A stretch of DNA of 64,000 nt. It comes from a virus. The stretch spans positions 10,664 to 74,663 of the IMG/VR virus record IMGVR_UViG_3300001097_000004; one strand, 5' to 3'. How positions within the stretch are numbered: position 1 is the stretch's first letter; each line of letters starts with the position of its first letter. The position numbers and the translations under genes were made by a program. Of the stretch, positions 34,057 to 55,555 are shown piece by piece. The notes under the pieces are model-generated. The model saw nothing but the letters and a program-made list of their open reading frames with translations. It had not been told where the DNA came from and searched no databases.

Positions 34057-34339
34057 TTGGTTATTATAGCATTGAAAAGGAACGAGTTGTTGTTCGTACT
34101 GAGTGGGTGGGATGGTACCTTAACCTTAATTTTGTTACCGGGTGGGGGCGCGGAATAGGCAGCGGCAGAAGAGGGGTGGGTATACTTCGTACTGAGGGGG
34201 GAAATCGGCCCATTAACGTCAAAGTGCGTTTGACGGGTGAGACGGGAACCCTTATATGCGCCTCGGCTGCAAAATCGTTTCCTGAATTTTTCTCATGCCG
34301 ACCGGCCAGAAATTCCAAGTCCCACCCCCTCCCTCCCAA

Positions 34340-34790
34340 GTAGTGCATTATATCATCATTTCTCGTGTTTGTCAACATAATTGACAATATATTCCTCACA
34401 AAAATATGTGAGAGACATTCATGTACATTTCTATGAAATAATCTCACTATCTCAATGATGAGTTTCATTCATGACTATTATTGATAGACATTCATCATTC
34501 AATTAGCCTAGCTAATGTATATGCTTAGCTAGCTAATGTATATGCTTAGCTAGGCTAATGATAATCAATGAGCAATAATCATCAATGATGTGTTGACACT
34601 GGGCTGATAGTGTGCTAGGGTAGGCCTAGGATGTGTGTACAGCCCAGGTGTGAGCACTACTCACGTGCATAGGTGCGCCTGCCTGCCTGCTGCCTGCCTG
34701 AAGATAGCAGTGAGGCAAACTCCTCAGACCCCCCTCAGACCCCCCTCAGACCCCCCCCTCTACAGGCAAAAAATACCCCCCCCCTGTAGG
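34340..34790. repeat. AT-rich non-coding block with direct and inverted repeats
   Basis: TAGCTAATGTATATGCTTAGC x2 flanked by TAGCCTAGC/GCTAGGCTA; CCTCAGACCCC x3; GCCT runs. Confidence 0.8.
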
Positions 34791-34803
34791 CTATAATTGA
34801 GAT

Positions 34804-34902
34804 ATGAAGAAATGCTCAAAATGTGGAGACACGTATCCGACATCCCAGTTCGAGCGAGACTCAACAAAAAGAGACGGCCACAAATATCAATGTGAAATTT
34901 GA
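34804..34902 (+). pseudogene. Truncated zinc-finger ORF (HNH/EndoVII-type N-terminal finger)
   Basis: TATAAT-N6-ATG; MKKCSKCGDTYPTSQF...DGHKYQCEI* with TGA where the fourth Cys is expected. Confidence 0.5.
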
Positions 34903-35368
34903 GCTAGGCAACTATCGGCATCACGGTTGGCACCGGGCCTAAGGGTTATCGGCATGTAGCTACGCTCTACAGATATTGATCGTAGCGTGAACTATAGGTG
35001 AGCTTCACCGCATCGACTGGGTTACGCGTGAAAGTCTCAACGTCACCCGTTGACGTGTTGCCAAGGATGCCAACCATTCTCACGGCAGTAAACACTACGT
35101 CACCGCATGAGTCCGCGACCGCCGAGCTACGCGCCAACCATCGCTGTGAGCCTGTAAGAAATTCATCATCTTCAATGATGTCCGCATACTCTACTGTGTG
35201 TGCCACGGTGTCTCCCGACTTGATCCCCATCTGGTGGAGGTAGTTCCTACTATACATGACCCGCGACACGATTGCAACTCTTGTACCGCGACACGCCCGA
35301 GATTCGTGAGAGTTGACTCTCACCCCCTAAGCATGTAAGCTAAAGCTAACCGATTGAAAGGGGACACA

Positions 35369-35593
35369 ATGTCTCACACAAACACTGTAAGCCACGAGCT
35401 AGCCGAGTGGACTACTGCCGAGTTGCAACTCCGCTATGACGTGCTCACCGAGTTAGGCGCACCATACGGCCCCGGGGACATTGACAGCTACCTGCGCCGA
35501 CTGGATACAGCGATGTGTGGCTGTGGGGACGAGTACCCCTGCGAGGTTGATAGCTCACGCGCCATTGATATCGAGCTAGGCTCACGCGCCTAA
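35369..35593 (+). CDS. Hypothetical early protein
   Basis: TTGACT-N17-TAAGCT promoter (35313-35341), RBS GAAAGGGG, downstream hairpin. Confidence 0.8.
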   Translation: MSHTNTVSHELAEWTTAELQLRYDVLTELGAPYGPGDIDSYLRRLDTAMCGCGDEYPCEVDSSRAIDIELGSRA

Positions 35594-35799
35594 GGCCTAA
35601 GACATGCGCCCCGGGGTAGTTGACCGGGGCGTTAGTCTTGCCCGGGGTACTCTCACGCGCCAACACGCGCCTAAGCCCTTAGACGGCCACACAGCGAACG
35701 ACACGCCCGGGATTCACGAGAGTTGACACGACACTCGCAATACGATAGTCTTACATTGTAAGCAGTTGATAACTCCACACAGACAGAAATGAGACTCTC

Positions 35800-36021
35800 A
35801 TGACGACAGCGACCATCGTAGGCATCACCGGTCAGGCAGACAACCTCTTCGCAACTGGAACTAAGTCCGGGGGCATCAAGGTGAAGACCAGCGATAAAGG
35901 TCTCGCCCGTAACATCGCTCCTAGCACAGTCCAGAATAAAGGTGGATTCCTCGCAACACTCGACAACATCTACCTCAACGGCCAGAACGGCACCTATTAC
36001 CACTCGATCATTCTCAACTAA
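35800..36021 (+). CDS. Hypothetical early protein
   Basis: TTGACA-N17-TAGTCT promoter (35723-35751), downstream hairpin. Confidence 0.8.
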   Translation: MTTATIVGITGQADNLFATGTKSGGIKVKTSDKGLARNIAPSTVQNKGGFLATLDNIYLNGQNGTYYHSIILN

Positions 36022-36216
36022 ACTCAATGCCCCTCAGCTTTCACAGTGTGGGGCGTTAGTTGTTTCCAGGGGCAACTCCACGCCGAGCACTCCTAAGCCG
36101 TTAGCGAGACACACAGCACCACAGGACACGCTGAGAGTCAAGGGTTGACATGCACGCGCCTACCATGTACACTTTAACTATAGCCCCAAGGTGGGGCAGA
36201 TTGAGAGACAACCACC

Positions 36217-36450
36217 ATGGCTCACGTCAACACGCGCCCATCGCGCACGAGCACCTATGCGCTCCCATACCCGGGGCAGGTGGAGTCAGACCCGGCCCTA
36301 GGCGATATCGTAAAGGTTCTGTCCGGCGATCTCCGGGGAGACTTCGGGATAGTCCAGAATTACGTGTTAGGTTCTGTCAAACCCTATGAAATTCTAGTAG
36401 GCCACACCTCGCACTACTTTAGCGCACCGCAACTCTTGCCGGTTATCTAG
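36217..36450 (+). CDS. Hypothetical early protein (KOW/SH3-like)
   Basis: TTGACA-N17-TACACT promoter (36145-36173); GDIVKVLSG..RG..G.V pattern. Confidence 0.7.
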   Translation: MAHVNTRPSRTSTYALPYPGQVESDPALGDIVKVLSGDLRGDFGIVQNYVLGSVKPYEILVGHTSHYFSAPQLLPVI

Positions 36451-36541
36451 ACCAGCACGACACGCGCCCCGGCTCACACGAGCGCGGGGCGTTAGTCGTT
36501 CCCCAGGCGATCTGCCCGGACACTGAGAATTTCCGAGTCCC

Positions 36542-37102
36542 TTACGCGGTCGCCCGGTTCCCGGACTTGATAGGTGTGTAGACTTTAGACTCTCCTGTAG
36601 CCGGGGACTTAAGCCCGTATCTGGCAAGTCTGAACCTTAACGCGCCGTGAGTGACACCTAGTCTTTTAGCTAGTCTATACATTGGTACCCCATCTGTCAA
36701 GTGCACGTCTGCCACCAGATTAGTGTACTCCTCAGCTTCTTCACGATACAGTGGCGAATTAGCTCGCACTTGCTGCGCCAGTGGTTGCAGCTCCAGCATG
36801 CGCTCAAGCTTCACCGGGTCAGGCTCCACGAACACGCGGGGCGACTTCACTGGCTTAGCCGGGGGCATGGGCAGCGGGAACTCCGCTAGGCTCACTGTAG
36901 AGTCCACGAATGTAGAGTCTGCCACGATCTGCCGGATACGCTCGCGCGTTACGCCTGCCGAGTTGGAGATAGACTGTAGTGTCCAGCCCTGCGCACGTAA
37001 CGCAGTAGCGTAATCGTCACGCGCATCATTGTCAAGTTCTGAGAATTTCTCATCCACCTCGACCGGTAGGGTCAGGCGAGTCTTACGATATTCAATATCC
37101 AT
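36542..37102 (-). CDS. Double helix-turn-helix DNA-binding protein (sigma70 region-4-like)
   Basis: GWTLQSISNSAGVTRERIRQI and GVPMYRLAKRLGVTHGALRFRL. Confidence 0.8.
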   Translation of the reverse strand: MDIEYRKTRLTLPVEVDEKFSELDNDARDDYATALRAQGWTLQSISNSAGVTRERIRQIVADSTFVDSTVSLAEFPLPMPPAKPVKSPRVFVEPDPVKLERMLELQPLAQQVRANSPLYREEAEEYTNLVADVHLTDGVPMYRLAKRLGVTHGALRFRLARYGLKSPATGESKVYTPIKSGNRATA

Positions 37103-37216
37103 GTTAGTTTGTCCTTGTACGTGTCCCGCACAACTCTACTCTAACACAATATACTTCAACCCGCAAGCCCAGACAGAAATACCCCAGACCAATTAGCCCG
37201 GGGCACTTCTATAATC

Positions 37217-37570
37217 CTATGAGCCGGACATCGCGACCGGGGCCATATTCTCCAGCAGCGTGTGCACGTACTCTGTCAGCCCGAGAGTTTCGCCCTCTAA
37301 GTCAACGCCACCGGTCAGCAGCACGTCACCCTCAATGGTGCCTGTGCCTTGTCCATAGACCATCGACCACAAATGTGTCGCCACTGTGTTGTGGTCAAGC
37401 CCGATCAGCTTGCCCTCTTCGTTGACGTACATGTCAAGGTCACGACTCAGTGAGACACACTCAATGTATCCACCTACCGCATCTTGCATGACGTTCAGTG
37501 AGGAATCCCCACTGTCAAGATCAACTACGACCTGCTCGCCCGAGACCTTAATCTGTAGTGCTTTACGCAT
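37217..37570 (-). CDS. DUF3846-like protein
   Basis: MQDAVGGYIE..L...MYVNEEGK..L..N..AT...I.GDVLLTG; start MRKAL with AAGGAG RBS. Confidence 0.8.
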   Translation of the reverse strand: MRKALQIKVSGEQVVVDLDSGDSSLNVMQDAVGGYIECVSLSRDLDMYVNEEGKLIGLDHNTVATHLWSMVYGQGTGTIEGDVLLTGGVDLEGETLGLTEYVHTLLENMAPVAMSGS

Positions 37571-37630
37571 CTTGCGCTCCTTCGTTGTTGGTATTACCAG
37601 AGTACCAGCAGCTAGCGCGTATGTCAAACT

Positions 37631-38092
37631 CTAAGGAACAATATTAACATTCGGGTCGCCCTCGAACATCTTTTCAATCTGCTCTAGCGTAAAGTCGCCC
37701 GAGTAGTTGTTAGCATTTTGCCACTTCTTGGTAGCATTAGCCGTAAGTGCTCCGAACTTCCCGCCATGGTCGGAAGCAGCCTCAGAGAAACCAGCGTCAG
37801 CTAGTGCACGTTGCAGGTGCAGCACAGATAGTGACTTGCGCCTAGCGTCCCGCTTGTTCAACTGCGAGATCAGCACGTCGTCCGTGAACTTGCCCGAGAC
37901 TACGAACTCCTTGCGGATACGGGGGCGCGACTTCTGTGCTGCGGGCGCGGGCGTGGGAGCGGTAGCAGTCTCGACCTTCTCAGTCTCGACTTCCACAGTC
38001 TTCTTGCTCTCCTTCGCGGGAGCAGCAGGGGACTTGGAATTTTTCTTGTCCTCCGGGGCCTCAGCAGCCGGGGCGTTCTTGTTCTCATCCAT
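37631..38092 (-). CDS. Peptidoglycan-binding-domain-like protein
   Basis: VLHLQRALADAGF...GKFGALTANATKKWQ after a disordered N-terminus. Confidence 0.6.
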   Translation of the reverse strand: MDENKNAPAAEAPEDKKNSKSPAAPAKESKKTVEVETEKVETATAPTPAPAAQKSRPRIRKEFVVSGKFTDDVLISQLNKRDARRKSLSVLHLQRALADAGFSEAASDHGGKFGALTANATKKWQNANNYSGDFTLEQIEKMFEGDPNVNIVP

Positions 38093-38136
38093 AGCAATAT
38101 CTTACCACAGCTTCGCAGGGGGTAGTGCCCGTATGG

Positions 38137-38505
38137 TTAGTCTATCATGTGCGCGACCAGTTTGTCAAATGTGATTGTCTCCACCCGTAGCACGTGTCGC
38201 ATGTCGTACGTGGCTTGATTCTTTCCGATTCGTGTCTCTGAGCGGGGCACAGCGACCAATGCCACGACGTAGCCTAGCTTTTCAAGCATGGACATGATAG
38301 CGGGCTGTCCGAACCAGCGCAATAGCGCACCCGGGGACTCGAACGCGAATCGGTCACTCCAGCCAACCATGGGGATGCCATCATCGTATGGGGCTGGGTG
38401 AATGTCCTTGTGTGTACGATACGTGCCAACCATAGCAGCCTCCTTATAGGGGCCTAGACCAGAGTCACAGTGTTGTACTCGGTAGAGCAGAATAGGGTTA
38501 TCCAT
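38137..38505 (-). CDS. Hypothetical protein
   Basis: Leaderless promoter TTGACA-N17-TAGACT-N6-ATG. Confidence 0.8.
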   Translation of the reverse strand: MDNPILLYRVQHCDSGLGPYKEAAMVGTYRTHKDIHPAPYDDGIPMVGWSDRFAFESPGALLRWFGQPAIMSMLEKLGYVVALVAVPRSETRIGKNQATYDMRHVLRVETITFDKLVAHMID

Positions 38506-38528
38506 AGCCCTAGTCTACAGCATATGAG

Positions 38529-38699
38529 CTACGGTGTCAAGTTCAGCAGCGCGATAGTCCCAGCACCGACTACCAGCACACCCGCAAGCGCGAGCAGGCT
38601 ACCAGACAGCACCGCAAGCACGATACCAGTCACGACCATAGCGAGCGCAAGCACAGCGAGCCAGTTAACCGAGCGCGTAAACATGAGGATTCTATTCAT
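38529..38699 (-). CDS. Small two-helix membrane protein (56 aa)
   Basis: MNRILMF...WLAVLALAMVVTGIVLAVLSGSLLALAGVLVVGAGTIALL; AAGGA RBS, ATGA overlap with the upstream gene. Confidence 0.7.
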   Translation of the reverse strand: MNRILMFTRSVNWLAVLALAMVVTGIVLAVLSGSLLALAGVLVVGAGTIALLNLTP

Positions 38700-38848
38700 T
38701 TCTTGTCCTTAGGTGGTGAGACTACCCCTAGCAGCGGTTCCAGCTTACGCGCACGCCTACGGGATAGGTACTCTAGCAGGGCGATGTACGCAGCGAATGC
38801 CGTAGCGAGCCCAGCGATTACCAGCAGCACGGCGAGGATAGGATTCAT
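38696..38848 (-). CDS. Small single-helix membrane protein (50 aa)
   Basis: MNPILAVLLVIAGLATAFAAYIALL..RRRARK; TAGACT-N6-ATG. Confidence 0.7.
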   Translation of the reverse strand: MNPILAVLLVIAGLATAFAAYIALLEYLSRRRARKLEPLLGVVSPPKDKK

Positions 38849-38912
38849 GCCCCGAGTCTAACACAGAAACGGCCTACCCGCAAGGGGCAAGCCGTATCCT
38901 GTTCAGCCGGGG

Positions 38913-39248
38913 TTAGCCGTTGACAAATACCTCCGAGTGTGCTACGCCTTGACGCGTCAGGAACGACTTGATCGGTGTGTACAGCTTGCGCAGCTCCGCG
39001 CTCGATATGTCAGTCTCCGGGCGACTGCGCTCAGGGTAGCTCATGTAGCACACCCGCACAGTCTCCTGTAGGCGCGTTGACGCGTTGCTAGGCTTGCGCC
39101 AATATGCCCAGCCGTCACTAATGCTATTCGACCAGTCCATAAGTCGCCACAGCGTCATAACGGCAGCTTGCAGGTTAGGGCGGTGAAAGTCCTCGCACGC
39201 GTCACGCGCAGCGTTCTCTATCTCGCACTCGTTCAGGATGAATGCCAT
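38913..39248 (-). CDS. Hypothetical protein
   Basis: Start MAFILN with GAAAGGAG RBS; W...SDGWAYW.KP motif; PafBC-like promoter upstream. Confidence 0.8.
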   Translation of the reverse strand: MAFILNECEIENAARDACEDFHRPNLQAAVMTLWRLMDWSNSISDGWAYWRKPSNASTRLQETVRVCYMSYPERSRPETDISSAELRKLYTPIKSFLTRQGVAHSEVFVNG

Positions 39249-39351
39249 GGGGCACTCCTTTCTGTGGTTGTTAGTTCTAGTGTAGCACACTCTACCGACA
39301 AACACAAACGGCCTACCCCGTAGGGTAAGCCGTCAGCGTTGATCTAAGGGG

Positions 39352-39591
39352 TTAGAGTGGGCCATTCACCCAGTCATAGACGGAACGATCTAAATGACGC
39401 GGCTCTCGCACGCGCCCCTTGCCAGCAGGGTGGTTAGCCTTGCTACGCAGCAGGTCGGCGTACGCAGCACGCGCAGCGACTTTCTCCCGGTGAGTCTTCA
39501 ATGCCGACGCGACCAGCAGCAGCACGATTCCGAGTGCAAACACGTAGGCGAGCAGTGTGGTTCCCGGTGTGGTGGCGATGAGTTCAAGCAT
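39352..39591 (-). CDS. Small membrane protein
   Basis: GAAGGA RBS; one TM helix then a basic tail; own promoter. Confidence 0.75.
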   Translation of the reverse strand: MLELIATTPGTTLLAYVFALGIVLLLVASALKTHREKVAARAAYADLLRSKANHPAGKGRVREPRHLDRSVYDWVNGPL

Positions 39592-39631
39592 GTTGTCCTT
39601 CTCTCTGGTTGGTGGTTCCAACTCTAGCAGG

Positions 39632-39751
39632 TCATTCCGTTCCTGTCAAGCGGGTTATGAGTGCAGCGACTGCCCAGATAACCGGCAGCACTACAATGAA
39701 TCCGCTCGCACCGTAGGCGGTGAACGCTACGATGGTGGTGAGGATGGTCAT
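39632..39751 (-). CDS. Small hydrophobic protein (39 aa)
   Basis: MTILTTIVAFTAYGASGFIVVLPVIWAVAALITRL; AGGGAG RBS; own promoter. Confidence 0.65.
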   Translation of the reverse strand: MTILTTIVAFTAYGASGFIVVLPVIWAVAALITRLTGTE

Positions 39752-39806
39752 GGTGTCTCCCTTGCTTGTTACTGCAAGCTTACCATGATACCCGCAACCT
39801 GTCAAG

Positions 39807-39950
39807 TCACTCTTTGAATGTCGGCACTTTCTTCTTCGGGGGCTCTATCTTGACTGTTCTCTTATATTCTTTGCGGGGGTTTTCTGTCGGACTCTTAAAC
39901 AAAATTAGCCCGACGATGAAGATACACATTGCGATATAGGCGATACTCAT
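39807..39950 (-). CDS. Small membrane protein (47 aa)
   Basis: MSIAYIAMCIFIVGLILF then a Lys-rich tail; TTGACA-N17-TAGACT-N6-ATG. Confidence 0.7.
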   Translation of the reverse strand: MSIAYIAMCIFIVGLILFKSPTENPRKEYKRTVKIEPPKKKVPTFKE

Positions 39951-39997
39951 CCCTATAGTCTATCAGCTCGACACCTTGATGTCAAGTCTCTAACGGC

Positions 39998-40118
39998 GAA
40001 TGCCCCGACACAGTTCACGATGTCGGGGCACTCTCAACCGAGAGTAGCAGGGGAGTCAGGTTTCGCCGGGGTCTTACGCCCTTGTTAGAGCTACCCAATC
40101 AGGCCAACTTCCCTACTA
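39998..40118 (-). ncRNA. Candidate structured small RNA
   Basis: Promoter TTGACA-N17-CAGAAT, no ORF; 15-bp closing stem 40104-40118 with 40045-40059, internal hairpins, terminal GC hairpin. Confidence 0.55.
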
Positions 40119-40180
40119 ACTACTATTCTGCCACCTATCCGCTCGCTTGTCAAGTCCTAAGATTCCCGGGCGTGTCGGAA

Positions 40181-40399
40181 CTACCCCACAAACTGCACCA
40201 GCTCGTCATACAGCTCATCAGTACGCTCCCGCGATAGCTTTGCGATCTCCAGCATGGCGGTATACATCTCCGCAGCGAGTGCTCCTGTAGTGGCTCCCAG
40301 TACCGGATGATTGCGTATCACAGTGTCCAATACTGCCATATCCGCACCGAGCAGGGCATCCATATCCGCACCGAGCGGGGCATCTTGTAAAGGTTCCAT
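40181..40399 (-). CDS. Hypothetical protein
   Basis: Leaderless promoter; internal LGADM duplication. Confidence 0.7.
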   Translation of the reverse strand: MEPLQDAPLGADMDALLGADMAVLDTVIRNHPVLGATTGALAAEMYTAMLEIAKLSRERTDELYDELVQFVG

Positions 40400-40542
40400 G
40401 CCTACAGCCTATACTCTATATGCTCGATTGTCAAGTCGGCGGGCGCAGTACCGGGGACTTGGAATTTCTGCCCCGGGGGATAAAAAAATCACCGAATAAG
40501 GGAGACTATACGTCATCCCTTATCCGGGTGGTGTTTGGTACG

Positions 40543-40713
40543 CTATGCAGCGTAACGGGCGATCTCTGCCCGCTTAACCGCTTGGCGCGATCTCTCGCGC
40601 TTGGGGCGATTGTCCCATGGCGTGGCCGCTCCAGACCGGCGACGTTCCCGGTCAGCTTGTGCAAGCTCCGGGTTCTCGTGACGGTGGCGCTTGGTGTTCT
40701 CCTTGTTGGTCAT
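40543..40713 (-). CDS. Small basic protein
   Basis: MTNKEN...RRRSGAATPWDNRPKRERSR; TACACT-N6-ATG. Confidence 0.75.
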   Translation of the reverse strand: MTNKENTKRHRHENPELAQADRERRRSGAATPWDNRPKRERSRQAVKRAEIARYAA

Positions 40714-40752
40714 GATACTAGTGTAGCACACCGCTCGCCCGGTGTCTACTCT

Positions 40753-40986
40753 CTAGAAGAAAATATCCTTGGAATAGTCCCGGTCGCATCCGGGGCATAT
40801 CCACGCGAACGTGGCGCACGCATGGTCACCGTAGAGTTCTCCCTCTACGTCTCCACCAGAGAATGTGCAGCTATCCCGTAAGTAGTCGCACGCGTCAACG
40901 TGGCGCGTCTCGTCTCGCTCGTAGTCGTCTCCCGCGATCTGTGTCTCATTACCACTCACGCCAGGGGGAAAATTTGAAAGTGTCAT
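40753..40986 (-). CDS. Small Cys-rich protein
   Basis: SNFPPGVSG.E..IAG N-terminus, WICPGC; GAAGGA RBS. Confidence 0.75.
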   Translation of the reverse strand: MTLSNFPPGVSGNETQIAGDDYERDETRHVDACDYLRDSCTFSGGDVEGELYGDHACATFAWICPGCDRDYSKDIFF

Positions 40987-41082
40987 GCTGTCCTTCTTTC
41001 TGGTTGATGCTCTAAGCCTACACCATACCCCAGACAAACACAATACCCCCGGCAAACTATCTACCGGGGGCGTGTCTCGCGT

Positions 41083-41334
41083 CTAGAGAAACACGTGCAG
41101 GTGTAGTTGACTGATTGCGTCCTCCGCAGACACTACGCGCCCATTAGGCAGCTCCAGCGACGCGTCCCAGTCCTCCTGTTGAGCTAGTCGGATAGCCTCG
41201 ACCGCGAACGGGTGGAAGTCCGAATGAACCGGGGGATAGCAGTTCGTGAGCAGGTGTGCAGATACCGCCGTGGCAAGTGAGATTGCCCCATCCTGAGCCG
41301 ACTCCGCGTATGCTTGTGCAGTTGAGAAACCCAT
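41083..41334 (-). CDS. Hypothetical protein
   Basis: MGFSTA..., HL..NCYPPV motif; GAAAGGA RBS; own promoter. Confidence 0.8.
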   Translation of the reverse strand: MGFSTAQAYAESAQDGAISLATAVSAHLLTNCYPPVHSDFHPFAVEAIRLAQQEDWDASLELPNGRVVSAEDAISQLHLHVFL

Positions 41335-41553
41335 GTGAGTTTGTCCTTTCTGGTTGATAGTTCCTATCCTACACTGTATCCGGCAGGATGTCAAATCCGA
41401 ATATGAGACTCCGAGTGTGGTCGCGCTTGTCGTCACGCAAGTCCGGGAGGCCGGGCGCAAGGGACTTGGAATTTCTGTTTGGGCCGACAAAAACGCCCCA
41501 ATAGACTAGAGTGTCTACCGGGGCGTTTCGCCTAGCACCTTTCTATTAGATTA

Positions 41554-42312: not shown

Positions 42313-42613
42313 AATGTGTAGCCTTTCAGTAGTTTGTCTCTGGCGTATTGCCTCGACTAAGAACAACCATACGCATACCCACTGACAAATGCAAATTAGC
42401 GTGTTTCCCGGGCGTGTCGGAATTGCGTCCTCTCTCCACGCACGCACCCGCACGCACCCGCACGCGATTATCCCAGACCGCATGCGTTCTGTCAAGTCCC
42501 AATTCGGGGGGTAGCTCGGCAGGGCGTGCCACAATTTCCAAGTCCCTGGCGGGGGACAAAAAAATACCCCCGCTAGTGGATACCAGCGGGGGCGTTCCCT
42601 TTGACCTTTCTCG

Positions 42614-43908: not shown

Positions 43909-44020
43909 GTATTTAGTGTAGCATATGCACGCAGAGAGCGCAAATCACAGGGGACTTAGAGTTTCTGCATCGCGCCCGAAAGAAAATCCCGGCGAACCGG
44001 GAATTCCTCACCTTTCGGGT

Positions 44021-44792: not shown

Positions 44793-44970
44793 AATCTAAT
44801 ACTAAAGCATGCCACCCGCAATGTCAAATCTATTTTGCTATTGACTTCTCCCGCAACCTGTGCTAAAATCCCGCGCACGCGTTTCGGTAACGCGCAGAAA
44901 TTTCCAAGTCCCTCCCGGCAAACAGAAACGCCCCGGACAATTTGCTATCCGGGGCGATCTGTGCTAGGGG

Positions 44971-45664: not shown

Positions 45665-45763
45665 AAGTAAAGACTACACCTTATCCGCATGCGTGTCAAG
45701 TCCCGGCGAAACAGAAACACTCCCCGACGACTGACCAGAATCGCGGGGAGTGTTAGTCTGTAG

Positions 45764-46769: not shown

Positions 46770-46810
46770 GATTATATTATACCCTTCTGGTCGGTGGTTG
46801 TCAAATCGGG

Positions 46811-46927: not shown

Positions 46928-47108
46928 GCTTCTATCCTATACCCCCCGGCATCCGAATGTCAAGTGTCAAACCGTACAGGGATGTATCAGATTCAGTATC
47001 TTTCCTGTATATTTTGACACCCGGGACTTGGAATTTCCACCCGCACACAAAAAGGTGAGCCGAACTCACACCATCTTTAGTGTGAGTTCGGCTCGTCTCC
47101 CTTTCTCT

Positions 47109-47667: not shown

Positions 47668-47810
47668 TGGGTACCTTTCTGGTCGATTGGTTGTTAGTAC
47701 AAGACTACACCCGTACAAGCTCCCTGTCAAGTCCCGGCGCAAACTAATTTCCAAGTCCCTCCCGCAAACGAAAACGGGGGTACGTTTCCGCGCCCCCGTA
47801 TCCGTACGTG

Positions 47811-48295: not shown

Positions 48296-48658
48296 CTAGC
48301 TCCCATACGCGTCGTCGGGGTGGGCGAGGATGTACTTGAACGAGCTGAGTGCAGCTCCCCACGTCTCTCCACGATCTTGATCTCTCTGTGCTTCGCGTGC
48401 TGCGAGGCTCAAACTGCTCGGCGCGTCATAGTAGAGGGTGAACAAGTCGAAAATGTTTATGTTGACCTCCGGCATCGGGATACCAAGGTTCCAAAGCGCA
48501 TGCCCCAACAGACAGGACGGCTCGCCATCAATCTCGTACTGGCACATATCGTACGGGTACGACACGTAGACAAAACCCTCACCCATGAGAGTTACGGCAT
48601 CCTCCAATGCCTTAGTGAATTCCTCGGTTGTGATCTTGATCTTCTTGGTTGTGGTCAT
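48296..48658 (-). CDS. Hypothetical protein, paralog of the domains in 57149-57925
   Basis: C.Y...G.PSCLLG.AL..LG, AQ..QD.G.TWG.AL. Confidence 0.8.
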   Translation of the reverse strand: MTTTKKIKITTEEFTKALEDAVTLMGEGFVYVSYPYDMCQYEIDGEPSCLLGHALWNLGIPMPEVNINIFDLFTLYYDAPSSLSLAAREAQRDQDRGETWGAALSSFKYILAHPDDAYGS

Positions 48659-48786
48659 ATACCTATTCTAAGCCACTCGACACCCAATGTCAAGTCTGGA
48701 ACCGGCACAAAATTCCAAGTCCCTCGGCACGCAAGAACCCCCGCACAGTGACCAGAATGTGCGGGGGCGGTCTCTTGAGTTTTGGG

Positions 48787-49149
48787 TTAGCGGTTCCTGT
48801 AGAACTCCGAAATGTTGATGGGCGGTTCGCCTACGTCCTCGGGGGAGACACCATCCGGTAAGGCCTCCAGGCCCATTTCATCGGCAGCAGTCTCCACGGC
48901 ATTCTGAACGTAAGTCCAGTCGGTTTCGGTGCAGTCTTCGAGCATGCCCCACGAATGAGTAACCTGTGCAGACTCGCGCAGTGCCTCGCGGTGCTCTGCG
49001 GGGTACCAGACAACATACTCGTCCAGATCGGCAGGCGACCAAATCTTGACTGGGATGTCGAACTCGCTGGCAATCCCGCGCAGTAGGTCATATGGTGATA
49101 TACCTTCCGGCACCCTGATCGGCGTGCCGTTTATGTGAATGATGTTCAT
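48787..49149 (-). CDS. Acidic hypothetical protein
   Basis: GAAGGAG RBS; own promoter. Confidence 0.8.
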   Translation of the reverse strand: MNIIHINGTPIRVPEGISPYDLLRGIASEFDIPVKIWSPADLDEYVVWYPAEHREALRESAQVTHSWGMLEDCTETDWTYVQNAVETAADEMGLEALPDGVSPEDVGEPPINISEFYRNR

Positions 49150-49212
49150 GTGGCTCCTTCGTGGTTGTTGTTGTTCTAATCCTACGCGAACAAGTCGCTC
49201 GTGTCAAGTCCT

Positions 49213-49500
49213 CTACAAAACAACTTTCCCGCATTCGCAGGTCGTTTCTGCGGGGGCGTACGCGTCCCGCATATCTTGTCTGTTCGATTCTGAGAGCTTA
49301 GTGAAAAGCTCGTTCCGCATTCCGTAGAACGTCCTGAGTCCGGGGCGCGAGACGATGTCTCCGTGCAGGGTCATACCCGCGCACCGTGTGTCAGCACAGA
49401 CCAGTCGGTCATACCCGAGGAATACTTCTCCGGGGTATGCAGCCTCATAGGCCGCGTCCCGCGCTCGGTACTCGTCAATGGTCTTCTCCGTGGTTGTCAT
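49213..49500 (-). CDS. Hypothetical protein
   Basis: Leaderless promoter; C....CAG, CECG. Confidence 0.8.
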   Translation of the reverse strand: MTTTEKTIDEYRARDAAYEAAYPGEVFLGYDRLVCADTRCAGMTLHGDIVSRPGLRTFYGMRNELFTKLSESNRQDMRDAYAPAETTCECGKVVL

Positions 49501-49539
49501 ACCTAAAGACTACACCTCGGAGAATCCAATGTCAAGGGG

Positions 49540-49746
49540 TTAGCCTACATCCTCGCTGCGTTGGATTGGGTTATCGTACCAGTAGCAACCGATGCCGTTT
49601 GGCGAGTATCCGAAGTGGGTCATGTCCCACTTCGGGTCGTACACATCATAGCTCTGGTTGGCCTTGAGACCGCCCTCGTAGTCTGCGAGTTCACGCAGGC
49701 GATCAAAGTTGTCGGCGGTGATCTTGATTACTTGTGTGTTGGTCAT
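49540..49746 (-). CDS. Hypothetical protein
   Basis: Leaderless promoter. Confidence 0.75.
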   Translation of the reverse strand: MTNTQVIKITADNFDRLRELADYEGGLKANQSYDVYDPKWDMTHFGYSPNGIGCYWYDNPIQRSEDVG

Positions 49747-49784
49747 AAGTAAAGATTACCAGTTGGCGGGCGAGCTGTCAAGTC

Positions 49785-50195
49785 CTACCACACCCAGTCA
49801 TGTGTTGAGTCCTCGTCAGTCCACGGCTTGGTGCTCATGACGTACCCAACGCGATTGACGCTGTGCCAGCCGGTGGCGATGTATAGAATGCCGTCACAGT
49901 CAAGCACAGTCCACAGGTGGGACTCGTCCTTTGGGCGGTAGAAGAACTGGGGAGACACAGTGTCAGTGGTGTCTGGCCACGGCTCGGCAACAAAATGGTC
50001 GTCCCAGTCTGGAAGACTTGCACGCTCCCGCGCACCTTCCACGGCAGCCTCAATCAGGTTGGCAACGTCATGGGCGAGTCCATCTAAAATCTGGTCATAC
50101 CCACCCTCGTCAAAGTCTGGGCCTGTAAAGAGAGGGGCCAGTAGGTCGTTGAGTTCGTAGCGGTCAATTTCAAACTTCGGTGTGGTTGTGGTCAT
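49785..50195 (-). CDS. Hypothetical protein
   Basis: HLWTVLDCDG.LYI..GWH.VNR.GY motif; leaderless promoter. Confidence 0.8.
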   Translation of the reverse strand: MTTTTPKFEIDRYELNDLLAPLFTGPDFDEGGYDQILDGLAHDVANLIEAAVEGARERASLPDWDDHFVAEPWPDTTDTVSPQFFYRPKDESHLWTVLDCDGILYIATGWHSVNRVGYVMSTKPWTDEDSTHDWVW

Positions 50196-50216
50196 GTCTC
50201 TACTCTACCCTCCGGG

Positions 50217-50627
50217 TTAGTCGTTGTCAAGTGTTCCGGTGGACTCGCGCCAGAGTGCAGCCTCGAACAGGTCACGTCCCGCGCCCCACTCGTCTGCCGC
50301 ATCCCATTCTCCATCGCTGGCAATCTTAAAGTCCGGGCTGTCCTCTTTGATGCGGAGGAGTGTAGCGCAGACCACGGGGTCGTAGAGCTTGCGAGCTGTC
50401 TTGCAGCATCCGAATCCGTCTTCGACAGTGGAGATGTACAGCGTCTCGTACGCGTCGTCTCCGACTCCGTTGAACGAGATCAGGTCGTCGGTAAGTATAG
50501 GCTCCGTACCCTCGACTCCGTACGCCCCTGTGATAGGGATTCCGGAAGTCTCGATGATGGTCTTGATGTCTGCGAGAGCGGCATCCGTGATGACTCGCTG
50601 TCCTCGCCAGTAGTGTGTAAAGCCCAA
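50217..50627 (-). CDS. Conserved hypothetical protein
   Basis: GFTHYW, I.FNG, ETL, CKTARK.YD.VV, SDG motifs. Confidence 0.8.
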   Translation of the reverse strand: MGFTHYWRGQRVITDAALADIKTIIETSGIPITGAYGVEGTEPILTDDLISFNGVGDDAYETLYISTVEDGFGCCKTARKLYDPVVCATLLRIKEDSPDFKIASDGEWDAADEWGAGRDLFEAALWRESTGTLDND

Positions 50628-50686
50628 TTTGAATCCTTTCGTCGGTGGTTGATGTACTTCTACTTTACAGGGCTAGCGCCCGTTTG

Positions 50687-50959
50687 TCAAGCCTTCTGGC
50701 CAAACCAGATTCCCTCGGAACGCAGGGCACGCAGCACTTCCTCACCGAGGAATTCGTACACGCTACCCGCGCAGTCCCCGGAGATGTCCGTGCCATCGGT
50801 ATCGAACAGATACAAGCCCATCGCAAGGATGTGGCCATCTTCCAGAATCTCGGTAACTCGGAAAGGGGCCTGCTCGTCTCCGTCGGAGATGCGGAACTTG
50901 CGTCCCACGAGCAGGTTATCGAGCTGGTTATCGAGCTTGGTCTTCTGTGTGTTGGTCAT
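50687..50959 (-). CDS. Hypothetical protein
   Basis: TTGACT-N17-TATTAT-N6-ATG (MTNTQK). Confidence 0.75.
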   Translation of the reverse strand: MTNTQKTKLDNQLDNLLVGRKFRISDGDEQAPFRVTEILEDGHILAMGLYLFDTDGTDISGDCAGSVYEFLGEEVLRALRSEGIWFGQKA

Positions 50960-51038
50960 ACTTCTATAATACACGGCATATTCTGGGAAGTCAAGCGTTG
51001 TTGCGGGACAGGCTTCAGAGGCCTGACCTCCCAGAAAT

Positions 51039-52826
51039 CTATTGGCTGGCGTTAGCCAGAGCTTTCACGCACGCCGCGCCGATTATGTACGCGGCATCGG
51101 TAACTTTCGCCCCCTGCATCTCGACAAGGGTGGCACCGTACTCAGTGCAGAACTTGGCCGCTTCGTGTGACCCACGGAAATCCAACCAGACCACCGCTAC
51201 CCCCTTCACACGGCACGCCTGCAAATGCTTTCGAACCGCAATGATCTGCTCCGGGCGGTACTGGCCATCCGAGCAGATGATTAGGAGACGAGCACCCTCG
51301 CCCGCCAGCAGTTTGAGACCGCCGTTGAGGGCTCGGAAACCTTTGTCAAATTCTTCGTAGTTGTCGTTGGCCGAGTACGCGGTGACCTGCTTTAGGACCT
51401 CGCCGGGCTTGAGCGCACTGAACGTAGACGCTCCGTAGTAGACAGCAGCCGACTTTCCGCGTATACGCGCAACCGCGTTGGAGAGGGCCCAAACCGCCAC
51501 CGCAATCGGGTTAACCGCTTGGTGCATCGAACCGCTCACGTCACTCATGATCCCCACCGTCAGCTCAGGGTCTTCCACGTGTATTCTCGACATCTTTCTC
51601 CACGGGTTATACCGTTCACGCTCTGACCGTCCAGTCATACTCCTGGCCGCACTGGCCTGCATCGCCGCTCGGGGTCGCAACCGTCCTGGCGGGTCTGACC
51701 GGTTGGTCTCCACCTTGATGTGGTCCCGGTACTTTGCTTTCCGTAGCTTGTCCGCGATCTGACTGGCCGCAAGAATCTCTTCCGCTGTGGGGTCCCTCTG
51801 GCCGATCCGTCTGGATTTGCTCTTACCGGGGGCACCGTTATGGATGTCAAACACCTCGTGAGCTGTCCCCGAGTCCGCATCCTCGCGGGCCGACTCTTTC
51901 GCGTCAGCTTTCGCTTGCCGTTCCGTCCGCTCACGGGCCTGCATCTCGTCGGCCACATCCGTGGCAGCAAACTCTGTCGCCTTACGGTCGGCATTCATCG
52001 CATCAAAGAGCGCCTGCAGCAGCTCCATGAGGGGTTTAGTCCCTCTGCTCGTTCCGCTCGCCGTTTCTTCTTTTTTGATGAGCTTGTCAAAGTCCCGTGC
52101 GATCTGATACATACGTGCGCGTTCAGAGCTAGCCCGTCCGTCTCCTTTGATCTTCAGGAACTCACACCACAGGGCTCGCATCCCGTCTCGACACCCCTCC
52201 GACAGGCCGCTCTTCAGTTGCTTGGAGATGTTCTTAACATCTCGCCGTTTCAGCGATCCGGCATCCACTCGCCCCTCGGCTAGGATGGCCACCTGAGCTA
52301 GAGCTGAGACCGAGGTCTCCGGTTTCGTCCGTGTCAGGTCACCCTCCAGAACTACTTCCAGAGCACAGGCCCGCAGAAAAACTTGGTGATCCGGGTAGGA
52401 CCGCAGAATCCGGTACTCGATCCGCAGCTCCTCCATGTTGATCATCCACCGTAACTCGCGCTCCGTTAGAGCCTGCCCGCCTTCTGTGATCATCTCGACC
52501 GGTGAGTGTGCAGCGTGTGCCGCTTCATGCAGAATCATGCCTGCCGCCTTTGGCCACTCCAGGTGAGTGTCGCGCTCGCGGAAGTCTCCGACCGTTTCAG
52601 GCCGCACACGCGTACCGAACGCAATGTCGGTGTTCACATCGATCTCGCCACCGTGAAAGTCGTAGAGCGCTGGAGCTTCACCGTCCCCACCGTCAGGCCC
52701 TAAATACACCTGAAGGTCTCGCCGGTTGGCCCACGTGTTGACTTGTGCAGTGACCTGACTGTTCAGCTCTCGCCACTCGGGCTTGATCTTCCGGAAGGTC
52801 CTCCGGTGTACGGTAAAGGCAGACAT
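51039..52826 (-). CDS. vWA (MIDAS) domain protein with N-terminal HExxH region, CobT-like
   Basis: HEAAH, NMEE.RIE, GRL, DVSGSM, LLIICSDG. Confidence 0.85.
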   Translation of the reverse strand: MSAFTVHRRTFRKIKPEWRELNSQVTAQVNTWANRRDLQVYLGPDGGDGEAPALYDFHGGEIDVNTDIAFGTRVRPETVGDFRERDTHLEWPKAAGMILHEAAHAAHSPVEMITEGGQALTERELRWMINMEELRIEYRILRSYPDHQVFLRACALEVVLEGDLTRTKPETSVSALAQVAILAEGRVDAGSLKRRDVKNISKQLKSGLSEGCRDGMRALWCEFLKIKGDGRASSERARMYQIARDFDKLIKKEETASGTSRGTKPLMELLQALFDAMNADRKATEFAATDVADEMQARERTERQAKADAKESAREDADSGTAHEVFDIHNGAPGKSKSRRIGQRDPTAEEILAASQIADKLRKAKYRDHIKVETNRSDPPGRLRPRAAMQASAARSMTGRSERERYNPWRKMSRIHVEDPELTVGIMSDVSGSMHQAVNPIAVAVWALSNAVARIRGKSAAVYYGASTFSALKPGEVLKQVTAYSANDNYEEFDKGFRALNGGLKLLAGEGARLLIICSDGQYRPEQIIAVRKHLQACRVKGVAVVWLDFRGSHEAAKFCTEYGATLVEMQGAKVTDAAYIIGAACVKALANASQ

Positions 52827-52853
52827 ATTATCTCTATCCTACCACAGACTTCA

Positions 52854-54455
52854 TCAAAGTGCAAGTGTTGGCGGGTCTTCCGCATTCTTGCCGATCCGGG
52901 CTGGAAGGTGGTCTCCCGTGTATACACGCCCCACGCGTTCAAGGACCACCGTTCGATCCTCCGGGGGACATGAGGCCAGCAGGTTGGCTAGCGCAAACTT
53001 CTCACCGTAGATGGCCGCTAGGTTTTTATACGTCAATAACTCTCGGAGCTGGGGTGCCCAACTGATCTTACCGTTGAACATCATCTTGGACAGTCCTTGA
53101 GCAATTCCTGCAATCTTCTCTGGGACTCCTAGTCTGGTTACGGCCAACTCCCAGTCCGTGTGCACCTCAACGTGGAGGTTGAACCGTGACATCAGTGCTT
53201 CAGACATCTGCACGCCGGGGGCATCCGGGTTGGTGGCACCGAGGAGGAAGAATCCGTCCGTTACGGAAATCACGCCACGGTCTGGGTTGGAGGTTACCTG
53301 AAGTTCACGCCGACCGTCCATGAGTGGGTAGACCACCGATAGCATCTTCGGGTCTCCCAGACCGATCTCGTCCAAAAGGATGGGCCGTCCCTCAAGGGCC
53401 GCACGAACTAATGGACCGTCAACCCAGATGTACTCGCCCTCACCTTTCTCACCGTGCTTCGGATTCGGGATGAACTGGCCAACAAGGTCAGAAACCTCGG
53501 TATCGCCGGTAATCATCACCGTGATCAAGTCCGTACCGTACGTAGCTTCTGCGAGCGCCGTCTTGCCCGTCCCTGGAGGGCCGTAGAGCAGCGGGAACTG
53601 ACTGTGCTCCCTCGCCGTCTTCAGTACCTCGACATCCTCAATACCCGTCCAGTTGCGTGAGTAGTACATCTCGCCGTTCGGTCGGGTGTATTCGTTCACG
53701 GTAGGTAGTAGGCTTTCTGTGCGGCTTGGGGGGCGGTCTTCCAGGGCGGGCGTTTGGATGCGGCCCATAGGTGGGACCGCTCTCTCAAGCATATCAAATG
53801 CGAGGCTCACGTATGAGGCCGCAACCATTTTAGAGGCCTGGCTCATGATGATCGGCCTCTGATTAGAGTTGGGCAGGAACGTGACCGCCCTGGCGAGCCA
53901 TCCGTTGAGGGTGTTCTCCTCAGCCCCTTTGTAACTGTACTCTGTGAGCGCTCCGGGGTCTGACCACATCACCGCTTGGTAGTGCTTCTTCGCACGGGAC
54001 AGCATTTTGTAGGGGGTTTTCGCTCCGTAGTCCGTGTGTGATCCCCAGTTCATCTCTAGGAATTCGGTGGCCGTCACTTGGATGAAGCCCATTGCAGGCT
54101 TGTCCGCTGTCCACGGGACCGTTTTCACCGTTCCACCGAAGTCGGAGAAGACCTCACCGATCACGGTCAAGTAGTTAACGAAATGGTCTTCACGTCTGGG
54201 TTCTGTGGATGTGTTGATCCTACCACCACGGGCCGGATCACTGGTCAAGCCCGCAAAGGATGGTACTCCCACTACTTCCCAGTGACCGTTAGATTCGGGG
54301 GTACAGAGCCGAGACACAATCGCTCCATGGCCGTTGGGGACTGTAGGGGTCGGGCCGACGAACATTACGTCTCGGGTGTTGCCGGTCTCCAGAAGCAGCT
54401 CGAAGTAGAGGGCGTGGGTCACCGTCTTAGTTTGGGAGATAGGCGCATCAGTCAT
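52854..54455 (-). CDS. MoxR-family AAA+ ATPase (CobS/CbbQ-like)
   Basis: GPPGTGKT, W.DGPL, ILLDEI, ATNP, SEAL.SRF. Confidence 0.9.
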   Translation of the reverse strand: MTDAPISQTKTVTHALYFELLLETGNTRDVMFVGPTPTVPNGHGAIVSRLCTPESNGHWEVVGVPSFAGLTSDPARGGRINTSTEPRREDHFVNYLTVIGEVFSDFGGTVKTVPWTADKPAMGFIQVTATEFLEMNWGSHTDYGAKTPYKMLSRAKKHYQAVMWSDPGALTEYSYKGAEENTLNGWLARAVTFLPNSNQRPIIMSQASKMVAASYVSLAFDMLERAVPPMGRIQTPALEDRPPSRTESLLPTVNEYTRPNGEMYYSRNWTGIEDVEVLKTAREHSQFPLLYGPPGTGKTALAEATYGTDLITVMITGDTEVSDLVGQFIPNPKHGEKGEGEYIWVDGPLVRAALEGRPILLDEIGLGDPKMLSVVYPLMDGRRELQVTSNPDRGVISVTDGFFLLGATNPDAPGVQMSEALMSRFNLHVEVHTDWELAVTRLGVPEKIAGIAQGLSKMMFNGKISWAPQLRELLTYKNLAAIYGEKFALANLLASCPPEDRTVVLERVGRVYTGDHLPARIGKNAEDPPTLAL

Positions 54456-54486
54456 AGCTCTACATTAGCACGCCGCTCCGTTAATG

Positions 54487-54756
54487 TCAAGCCTTAGGTG
54501 CGCACACCGGAGCTGAGCATGAGAGGCACAGAAGGTGTCCGTCATCATCCTCGCCTAAGACTATCGTCAGCGGAATGAATTTGATTGCCAGGGCCGGAGC
54601 CCGCCCAATCGCACTCTCGCAGTTGAAGCACTCGGTCAGGTCGTAGGGGACTTCAGGGAGACCGGCCAAAAGGGCCAAGTCGGCTTCCAAAGAGTTCGTG
54701 ATCAGATGGACCTCGAAGTGTTTGGTTATCGTGTTTTCCACGGTTACGTTTATCAT
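54487..54756 (-). CDS. Small Zn-finger-like protein
   Basis: CFNC ... CLSC. Confidence 0.7.
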   Translation of the reverse strand: MINVTVENTITKHFEVHLITNSLEADLALLAGLPEVPYDLTECFNCESAIGRAPALAIKFIPLTIVLGEDDDGHLLCLSCSAPVCAPKA

Positions 54757-54790
54757 ATCTGAAACCTACCACACATCCCGCGAACGTGTA

Positions 54791-55555
54791 CTACTGCACG
54801 GGCGCGGTTAGGAACACATTCTGAGAATCAAAAGCCAACCGTTGCAAAGTCTGCACCGTTGGAGTCCCAGTAGCCTCACTCGCCGTGTACCCGATTCGAA
54901 GTTGGTACCGTCTCATCGCACTCACCGTTGCATCATCGAACAGGCCCCGAGTCATACCGCCAGCGCCCACCGTCAGATGGAGAGCCTGCTGCATGCGTAG
55001 AACCTGACCGTTACGTTTTCCAGGCTGAAGCATGTGGACCTGACCCGTCACAACCTTACCGTTGTCCCCTCGGGCCTTCTTAGCTTTCGCGCCGTACCGT
55101 GGACGAACGAACACGAGAACATCCGTCTCATGCCTCAATCGTTCATACACACCGTCATCCTCCTGCGGTCCTCGCTTCAGGCCGCTCGCCGTCTGTCCTT
55201 CGACCGCTGAGAAGACGCGCTTGCGTTTCCAGTCACGGGTATCTGTTACCAGGCCGACATGCGGCTGAGCGAAGTCACCGTCCGTTGAGAAAGCATAGAA
55301 CACCAAATCACCCGGTAGGGGACTTGGAAATATGCGTCCCGCACGCGTGTACTCGGCAAGAGCACTCACCGTTGAAATAAGTGACGGTTGAGTGAACTCG
55401 CCTGCGTTACGGAGTACGGAATCCATGAAACTACCCGCCCACGCCTGCCCCGGATGACCGGACAGCGCCGCGTACGAGTTGTTTTTGTTCGGTTGGGATC
55501 GGGCCCCAACGTTGAGACGCGCCACCTCGATGACGGCCTGGACTTTAGCCTTCAT
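54791..55555 (-). CDS. CHAP-like domain plus peptidoglycan-binding domain (endolysin-like, catalytic Cys absent)
   Basis: AWAGSF (normally WC..F), P.PGDLVFY, HVGLV, VEGQT; C-terminal VLRMQQAL...G.FD..T..A.RRYQ. Confidence 0.75.
   Translation of the reverse strand: MKAKVQAVIEVARLNVGARSQPNKNNSYAALSGHPGQAWAGSFMDSVLRNAGEFTQPSLISTVSALAEYTRAGRIFPSPLPGDLVFYAFSTDGDFAQPHVGLVTDTRDWKRKRVFSAVEGQTASGLKRGPQEDDGVYERLRHETDVLVFVRPRYGAKAKKARGDNGKVVTGQVHMLQPGKRNGQVLRMQQALHLTVGAGGMTRGLFDDATVSAMRRYQLRIGYTASEATGTPTVQTLQRLAFDSQNVFLTAPVQ

Follow-up and report, generated by a model that had tools for sequence, protein, structure and literature searches.

What is the role of a 14-bp word that recurs a dozen times, in both orientations, in one region of a viral genome? 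The word, GGGACTTGGAAWTT, is found in a 64,000-nt stretch of DNA (termed the window), which represents bases 10,664–74,663 of the 74,663-bp IMG/VR virus record IMGVR_UViG_3300001097_000004 (CheckV completeness 42%). The virus is an uncultured actinobacterial phage. Because related phages carry another word at the same places, this asymmetric site is most likely where a sequence-specific DNA-binding protein docks. Positions given below are those of the window.

When up to two mismatches are allowed, GGGACTTGGAAWTT has 13 matches in the window, where 0.77 are expected (100 shuffles, maximum 4). The array consists of 12 of these matches at positions 34,310–55,332, six on each strand; nine are exact, two have one mismatch and one has two. 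The 13th match (27782, minus strand, 2 mismatches, in the portal gene region) is probably due to chance. No further copy with one mismatch or less is present in the entire 74,663-bp record. An earlier note on this DNA, made from its letters without database searches, had described about 12 copies in both orientations and had placed them correctly to within 1–3 bases.

An alignment of the copies displays 14 near-invariant positions (about 25 bits) with sharp edges, and the flanks are conserved in base composition only. The sharp edges and unconserved flanks argue against spread by duplication of a longer segment. There is no dyad symmetry in the motif logo, and a partial symmetry of the type GGAAWTTCC occurs in one copy only. 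Half-sites of GGGACTTGGAAWTT are not scattered elsewhere in the window, except for the 8-mer GGGACTTG, which occurs 15 times: in 10 motif copies, in 3 promoters (42493, 45697, 47728) and at 2 sites outside of the array (22987, 28438). At motif position 12 (W), the AT core as read on the minus strand is AAATT in 4/6 forward and 4/6 reverse copies, i.e. the core tends to hold its direction while the GGGACTTGG arm switches side; the counts are too small for significance.

Among sequencing runs, the stretch is found only in its probable source, a hypersaline lake metagenome, and no RNA run is listed for it. The exact 14-mer yields only single, scattered matches among the IMG/VR matches listed. One metagenome match to the motif plus GACTTGACA was found; it is on an unrelated low-GC contig that does not look like phage DNA and was taken as chance.

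The genes of the region are all on the minus strand. The 12 copies of the array, with their coordinates, strand and position relative to terminators, promoters and open reading frames (ORFs), are as follows.

34310–34323, minus strand, exact copy (GGGACTTGGAATTT)
36528–36541, minus strand, copy with 1 mismatch (GGGACTCGGAAATT); touches the stop codon of the helix-turn-helix (HTH) ORF 36542–37102
38029–38042, plus strand, exact copy; inside ORF 37631–38092, in its low-complexity N-terminal part (encodes KNSKSP)
40454–40467, plus strand, exact copy; 24 nt past the hairpin 40527–40492 and 19 nt ahead of the -35 element at 40434
41461–41474, plus strand, exact copy; 6 nt past the extended hairpin 41539–41481 (19 nt past the core stem); next promoter 41394–41366
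42533–42546, minus strand, exact copy; 19 nt past the terminator stem 42593–42566 and 37 nt ahead of the promoter 42495–42467
43951–43964, plus strand, degenerate copy with 2 mismatches (GGGACTTAGAGTTT); 22 nt past the terminator 44002–43987
44899–44912, minus strand, exact copy; 16 nt past the terminator 44956–44929 and 71 nt ahead of the promoter 44827–44799 (DUF7178 gene)
47023–47036, plus strand, exact copy; 20 nt past the terminator 47094–47057; next promoter 46963–46934
47746–47759, minus strand, exact copy; 14 nt past the core stem (extended hairpin 47808–47763) and 15 nt ahead of the -35 element at 47730
48710–48723, minus strand, exact copy; 13 nt past the core stem (extended hairpin 48780–48729) and 16 nt ahead of the promoter 48693–48665
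55319–55332, plus strand, copy with 1 mismatch (GGGACTTGGAAATA); inside ORF 54791–55555, a homolog of the ‘endolysin’ of the terminal repeat of relatives

Eight of the 12 copies lie directly past a rho-independent terminator hairpin of the transcribed strand and ahead of the next sigma-A-type promoter, and these are the same eight for which the earlier note had listed this position. The distance from the terminator is short, 13–22 nt from the core stem and 1–24 nt from the extended hairpin, and not about 30 bp as had been stated. (In four cases the hairpin is extended by pairing of the T-run with an upstream A-rich stretch.) The next -35 element is 6–71 nt away from the motif. The tight distance on one side and the variable distance on the other indicate that the motif is tied to the terminator side of the gap, irrespective of orientation: four of the eight copies are forward and four are reverse. 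Downstream of the copy at 43951 there is a promoter with a weak -35 element, followed by a leaderless ATG. At strong terminators that have no motif (45715, 41038, 39304, 38868, 37178), the promoter is immediately adjacent or overlaps. Spacing within the array is not regular, contrary to the earlier note, since the gaps between copies (723–6,609 bp) follow the length of the transcription units.

Of the four remaining copies, two are inside ORFs (38029 and 55319), as had been noted, and one abuts a stop codon (36528). The copy at 34310 is about 17–30 nt downstream of the start expected from a perfect consensus promoter (34375–34347), ahead of the terminase gene. Because none of the 12 copies overlaps a -35 or -10 element, the suggested global early shut-off is unlikely to take the form of promoter occlusion.

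The mixed orientation of the motif, together with two negative results, argues against a promoter and against an RNA element. None of the 12 copies shows a -10 element (TAnnnT) at 16–18 bp after the -35-like TTGGAA in either orientation, and the window has no Rfam 15 match at the gathering threshold and no tRNA gene. Sigma-54 promoters and promoters of the ECF/SigH type (GGAAT-N18-GTT) were considered by eye on the aligned copies and rejected, as there is no conserved downstream element.

The region that carries the array can be placed by comparison with cultured phages. The window displays a siphovirus structural block (tape measure, major tail, capsid, portal, an ORF of 3,557 aa and large terminase), followed at about 34–57 kb by some 40 small, mostly orphan genes. 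Judged by its portal and other proteins, this phage groups with the 186–195 kb Microbacterium phages Pumpernickel, Cece, Big4, A3Wally and Zooman, and also with Actinomycetia phage DSL-LC01. ORF 56094–57032 is a homolog of the first gene (gp1) of these relatives, and ORF 36542–37102 is a homolog of the HTH gene that closes their left arm.

In Cece and A3Wally, each match to their own word recurs once at a constant offset that reaches the end of the record, which shows that their left arms are direct terminal repeats (DTRs). The DTR lengths are 18,079 bp in Cece, 15,503 bp in A3Wally and 19,963 bp in Pumpernickel. Window positions 34,170–34,350 (minus strand) align with the internal repeat ends of A3Wally (locus L218, 15,390–15,570), Cece (L219, 17,965–18,145) and Pumpernickel (L204, 19,850–20,030). 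The three internal ends share one alignment column, just after ATATAAGGnn, and this predicts the repeat end of the window at about 34,248. The left end is approximate; a weak alignment to the genome start of the relatives places it at about 57,095. The resulting feature is:

34248–57095, no strand, predicted DTR equivalent, collapsed in the assembly; from alignment to the DTR ends of relatives; holds all 12 copies

Since both ends align with those of the relatives' DTR, the ‘early region’ of the earlier note is predicted to be the long terminal repeat. That note had missed this, as well as the tight coupling of the motif to the terminator and not to the promoter. For this contig, homology points to 34,248–57,095 as a collapsed DTR, within which the copy at 34310 is 62–75 bp from the predicted internal end. 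The window segment at 57.1–64 kb would then represent the distal end of the right arm.

Sigma-A-type promoter matches on the minus strand are concentrated in the repeat equivalent, with 36 inside 34,248–57,095 vs. 9 outside, and many of those inside are 5–8 nt ahead of a leaderless ATG. The -35 element is preceded by AC in 17/36 and by GAC in 11/36 of the promoters inside, and in 0/9 of those outside. The promoters inside the repeat equivalent are a distinct class.

The exact motif is not found in the relatives. It is absent in Pumpernickel, DSL-LC01, A3Wally, Cece, Big4 and Zooman, and in 80 large-terminase loci, 10 DUF7178 loci and 80 gp1 loci. Closer relatives are present in the protein collection, with 69–78% identity for DUF7178 and 87% and 58–63% for gp1. 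A DUF7178 scan of genome contigs yielded only a 40% relative in Haloactinopolyspora alba.

In place of the window motif, Cece, A3Wally, Big4, Zooman and the IMG/VR contigs behind loci L208 and L209 carry the word CGCAAGAG-N6-CACTAAAC, with a final G in Big4 and Zooman. Pumpernickel has a diverged form, CGCAAGAGAAT-N6-CTAAT. There are 11–13 copies of the bipartite word in Cece, A3Wally, Big4 and Zooman. Scans of whole genomes show 13 copies per repeat in Cece and A3Wally and 0 in the approximately 150–165 kb that lie between the repeats. A single block holds all copies in the records behind L208 (12 copies) and L209 (15 copies). Most bipartite copies are right behind a terminator and ahead of a promoter (11/13 of those in Cece are intergenic), and a few extend over a stop codon or over a ribosome-binding site plus start codon. 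The Cece version of the ‘endolysin’ gene also bears an intragenic copy of the Cece word. Both orientations are present, with splits of 4/9 in Cece, 4/9 in A3Wally, 4/8 in L208 and 7/7 in L209. Conversely, CGCAAGAG-N6-CACTAAAC is absent from the window, which contains a single CGCAAGAG, distant from the array, and no CACTAAAC.

One junction will be used to show this replacement. The terminator-motif-promoter junction upstream of the DUF7178 gene is orthologous in Cece (7780), A3Wally (6206), L208 (9854), L209 (9616) and the window (44899), and each displays the local word of its lineage. Such a concerted word change is expected from a change in a trans-acting reader. The window array thus belongs with the terminal-repeat junction boxes of its relatives by anatomy only; the word differs.

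The pattern extends to more distant lineages. Contig L223 has terminator-TTACACGGAAAAA-TTGACA junctions in both orientations, and its word and the window motif have a common AC..GGAAA core. More lineages have their own words in two orientations, e.g. CTTAGTAGCA and CTTGATAGCA.

The array is not spread evenly along the record and is absent from the structural genes, in agreement with the earlier note; the equivalent word is likewise restricted to the DTR in Cece and A3Wally. The preference of that note for a protein site in DNA over an RNA signal also remains the best fit, in view of the orientation independence, the placement in gaps that are transcribed only by read-through, the sharp 14-bp edges and the set-wise replacement in relatives, including the orthologous junction. 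This does not extend to any of the specific functions that it had listed.

The favoured reading, held tentatively and at close to an even chance, is that the word is the ‘junction box’ of this lineage in a DTR of the Pumpernickel type, and that its likely job is either at the boundaries of transcription units, which it would mark or enforce, or in switching a whole class of units. The site would occupy the gap between terminator and sigma-A promoter, which would be the only DNA of the region transcribed solely as read-through. A bound protein could there mark or enforce the boundary between many small pre-early units. As a roadblock or insulator, it would back up termination and shield the next promoter from read-through. 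Alternatively, the word may be a handle for later switching of the whole pre-early class, the terminal repeat presumably being the region that enters first and is expressed pre-early. The anatomy of the array, the confinement of the equivalent array to the terminal repeat in relatives and the change of word between lineages are shown; we infer that a protein binds the word and that its action is on transcription-unit boundaries.

Several known systems can be compared with this array. The repressor of cluster A mycobacteriophages is a monomer that binds a 13-bp asymmetric site at >20 dispersed places and stops RNA polymerase; the orientation of these sites, termed stoperators, follows transcription, and their function is lost when they are flipped (PMC9283540). 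Cluster A stoperators (L5 gp71, TipsytheTRex repressor; PMC9283540) are like the window array in having an asymmetric 13–14 bp word in 12 to >20 copies, and the two-HTH ORF 36542–37102 recalls the monomeric two-domain stoperator repressors described in the same source. Both kinds of site lie chiefly in the short gaps between genes of an actinobacteriophage, and within one genome they hardly vary. However, stoperators are distributed genome-wide in temperate phages, whereas the window array is confined to the terminal repeat, and they are not tied to terminators, unlike the window copies. A homolog of a stoperator repressor was not found here, with about 42% of the genome covered, and the two-HTH neighbour does not covary with the motif.

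The C1 operators of phage P1 are long and non-palindromic, and are present in many copies and in both orientations over tens of kilobases under one regulator. They resemble the window motif in being dispersed, asymmetric and numerous in both orientations, but they overlap promoters or sit just downstream of them and repress, whereas the window copies are upstream of the -35 element, by terminators. KorB OB sites of RK2 and the ParB-parS system provide about a dozen replicon-wide sites, some of them far from promoters, for global control; these are palindromes read by dimers. The likeness to the window array is in about a dozen dispersed specific sites, and the difference is the dyad symmetry.

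With respect to placement, the eukaryotic Sal box/TTF-I and Reb1 systems (Pol I/II) have a polar protein site behind a T-rich release element. Like the window motif, it is at a fixed short distance past a T-rich termination element and ahead of the next promoter; unlike the window motif it is polar, and it belongs to another kingdom and polymerase. We know of no established bacterial or phage counterpart of such a roadblock that is coupled to intrinsic terminators. With respect to setting, the terminal repeats of the T5/BF23 and SPO1 type are about 10–20 kb, or about 8–12% of the genome, and enter the cell first. They are like this DTR in being packed with small host-takeover genes, strong host-type promoters and terminators; the phage families are unrelated to this phage, and to our knowledge no array of terminator-side motifs has been reported for their repeats.

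One neighbouring gene was tested as the source of the binding protein:

36542–37102, minus strand, two-HTH protein of 186 aa; neighbour of the copy at 36528, tested as binder

The stop codon of this ORF touches a motif copy, and the stop codon of Pumpernickel gp49 does likewise; in Cece and A3Wally, no copy of their word touches the stop codon of the HTH gene. The protein has no sequence match in PDB (best E-value 0.64). Although the words differ, neither recognition helix (GVTRERIRQI, GVTHGALRFRLARYG) varies among the window protein and its counterparts in Pumpernickel, A3Wally, Cece and L208. The two-HTH protein was therefore rejected as the determinant of specificity. A conserved leader, GTGCGGGACAnGTACA, is present ahead of the start codon of the HTH gene in every lineage (window 36542–37216), and the homologous HTH loci are at about 17,560–18,224 in L204, 14,223–14,873 in L218 and 16,860–17,509 in L219.

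The HTH protein could be a candidate reader of a second box, (C)GACACGCCCGGGA, which is found about 10–12 nt upstream of -35 elements. In the window this box is at 35700, 40164, 42406, 43151 and 43739, and in A3Wally (L218) it is at 6250, 12263, 12781, 13343 and 13777, letter for letter the same as in the window. It is absent in Cece, Pumpernickel, L208 and L209.

The gp1 protein (window 56094–57032) has 207 homologs, with invariant residues C150, C160, C174 and H177. Its predicted fold (pLDDT 83) shows no clear PDB match; the sole fold match is a 51-residue helical hairpin like that of the NV1 small terminase, and it is weak (Z 6.0). The gp1 of Cece is annotated as a small terminase.

Some of these observations weigh against action at unit boundaries by a dedicated reader. 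Four of the 12 copies are not behind a terminator (36528 at a stop codon, 38029 and 55319 inside ORFs, and 34310). No binder was identified, and the sole recognizable DNA-binding neighbour has invariant helices. The window word is 14 bp and contiguous whereas that of the relatives is 22 bp and bipartite (8+8 bp), and with layouts that differ in this way the two words may have unrelated readers. Only one contig, from a single metagenome run, is known to carry the exact motif. The window copies show a 6/6 split although all genes are on the minus strand, in contrast to stoperators, which are oriented with transcription. Finally, the restriction to the terminal repeat fits a process at the DNA ends equally well.

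Such a process is the main rival, though unlikely in our estimate. The motif would mark the terminal repeat for stepwise entry (a first-step transfer as in T5, or a binding ratchet), for protection of either genome end from end-entering nucleases, or for recognition and duplication of the repeat in packaging. A repeat is present at both genome ends in the same sequence, so that a polar site would be needed in both orientations, and both orientations are indeed found in every lineage. The confinement of the equivalent word to the DTR in Cece and A3Wally and of all window copies to the DTR equivalent, the position of the copy at 34310 near the predicted repeat end, the small-terminase annotation of gp1 in Cece, and the weak small-terminase-like hairpin and invariant Cys/His cluster of gp1 are also in favour of this explanation. 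Two-step injection is reported for phages of the T5 type, whose terminal repeats are about 10 kb long (PMC10644984). However, the tight placement behind terminators is left unexplained, unless the site just needs DNA that is little transcribed. Sites for small terminases are normally clustered at the cut site, and the fold match of gp1 is inconclusive. Nor does the array look like Chi-type hotspots: these sites are 5–8 nt, vs. 14–22 nt here, all 14 bp are conserved, and the two orientations are interspersed and not grouped. The boundary and DNA-end readings may also be combined. Lineage-specific ‘address’ words in the terminal repeats of a large-actinophage superfamily could be read by a protein dedicated to them, which may be carried in the virion or be the first gene product, with both orientations serving both ends, and this would couple unit boundaries to staged entry, end protection or repeat duplication. 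This wider proposal has a rather low probability; if it is true, actinophages would have their own version of T5 first-step transfer, one with a defined cis code.

Four other explanations rank below the boundary and DNA-end readings. The motif may be a shared ‘linker’ for homologous or site-specific exchange of promoter-gene-terminator cassettes among co-infecting relatives. Mosaicism is high in the DTRs of the relatives, a number of blastn segments have an end within 10–20 bp of the motif, which is often the sole conserved island, and an extra gene of Big4 arrives with its own motif copy at the 3′ end. A conserved functional island would end alignments too, and the replacement boundaries between the closely related Big4 and Zooman are mainly at gene ends, with only one of about 18 within 15 bp of the motif and 4–5 within 60 bp, which is only a mild excess for intergenic features. 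In this pair the breakpoints, for which the earlier note had proposed such a check, do not track the equivalent word. No recombinase is associated with the array, 14 bp is short for homologous exchange, and the window copies show neither target-site duplications nor extended flank similarity. A linker role is thus improbable. For the same lack of target-site duplication and flank similarity, a transposon or MITE formed by the inward-facing inverted pairs 47746/47023, 44899/43951 and 42533/41461 was rejected. About as improbable is a site for a host protein that is recruited or titrated by the phage, with words that differ as hosts differ. A pre-early region is expressed before any phage protein exists, the specificity of 25 bits exceeds the need of a genome of about 180 kb, and the clade of Microbacterium phages has one word while this phage of a hypersaline lake has another; yet Pumpernickel, also a Microbacterium phage, has a diverged word. 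In 401 sampled Actinomycetota genomes the word occurs three times, always singly, compared with about 14 for the reversed control, although the host is perhaps unsampled and a regulator with few sites could be missed. It is very doubtful that the motif is a -35-like decoy or capture site that holds RNA polymerase released at the terminator and hands it to the next promoter. GGGACTTGgaa does resemble the local extended -35 element GGGACTTGACA, GGGACTTG is shared by 10 motif copies and 3 promoters, the AC or GAC ahead of -35 elements is specific to the repeat, and after the terminator at 45715 a promoter takes the place that the motif holds after the terminator at 44927. But a -10 element at 16–18 bp is lacking in either orientation, half of the copies point away from the next promoter, the 14-bp invariance exceeds what sigma region 4 reads, and the word of the relatives is only weakly -35-like. 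An RNA signal for processing, stability or antitermination in read-through transcripts can hardly be credited. Such transcripts would contain the motif, and the copies at 34310, 38029 and 55319 are certainly transcribed. However, six copies are present as the reverse complement in the sole transcribed strand, most copies are past the point of termination, and there is no conserved structure or pairing partner and no Rfam match.

A number of other features were observed in the window and its relatives. At window 34,400–34,850 (minus strand) there is an ORF-poor segment with G-runs and short tandem repeats, i.e. CCTACAG9, GGTCTGAGGGGGG three times, GCAGGC repeats and TAGCTAAGCATATACAT twice. Runs of G7–15 are seen in each of the cultured relatives, about 100 bp past the HTH gene and 450–500 bp before the internal end of the repeat. 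The large terminase ORF (31441–34056) encodes 871 aa, but for most relatives the match amounts to only about 453 aa, distributed over residues 1–852, which indicates one or more large insertions in this terminase, possibly an intein. The terminase of the cultured relatives is annotated as several pieces.

Seven low-GC (41–50%) IMG/VR relatives (L224, L225, L230, L241, L243, L249 and L272) display dense clusters of AACTTnnAACGA, with 12–23 copies per locus. These are mostly in one orientation, some are intragenic, and most are within a few kb around or after gp1 (locus about 9.2–13.5 kb). The reverse complement of this sequence, TCGTTGGAAGTT, resembles the core CTTGGAAATT of the window motif, and the clusters may be a packaging-site array. 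Locus L210, from a distant relative, shows a different, one-directional junction design: TAGTTACAA(A/G)AAACGC is repeated 23 times at 1,638–18,639, all in one orientation, and most copies begin at a stop codon and precede a hairpin in which the -35 element of the following promoter is enclosed.

Dispersed arrays of asymmetric operators are known in actinophages as stoperators. An array that is indifferent to orientation, hugs terminators and is confined to a terminal repeat has not been described, so far as searches of the literature reached (for the motif string, for Microbacterium phages and for terminal-repeat motif arrays). At stake is which protein reads the sites, and whether it enforces termination, switches off the pre-early units or acts on the DNA ends. 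The equivalent array is present in cultured and genetically tractable Microbacterium phages (Cece, A3Wally, Big4, Zooman), so that the question is directly testable. Together with the conserved end signature ATATAAGG, the motif array provides a marker by which the limits of collapsed terminal repeats can be recognized in metagenomic contigs from this group of phages.

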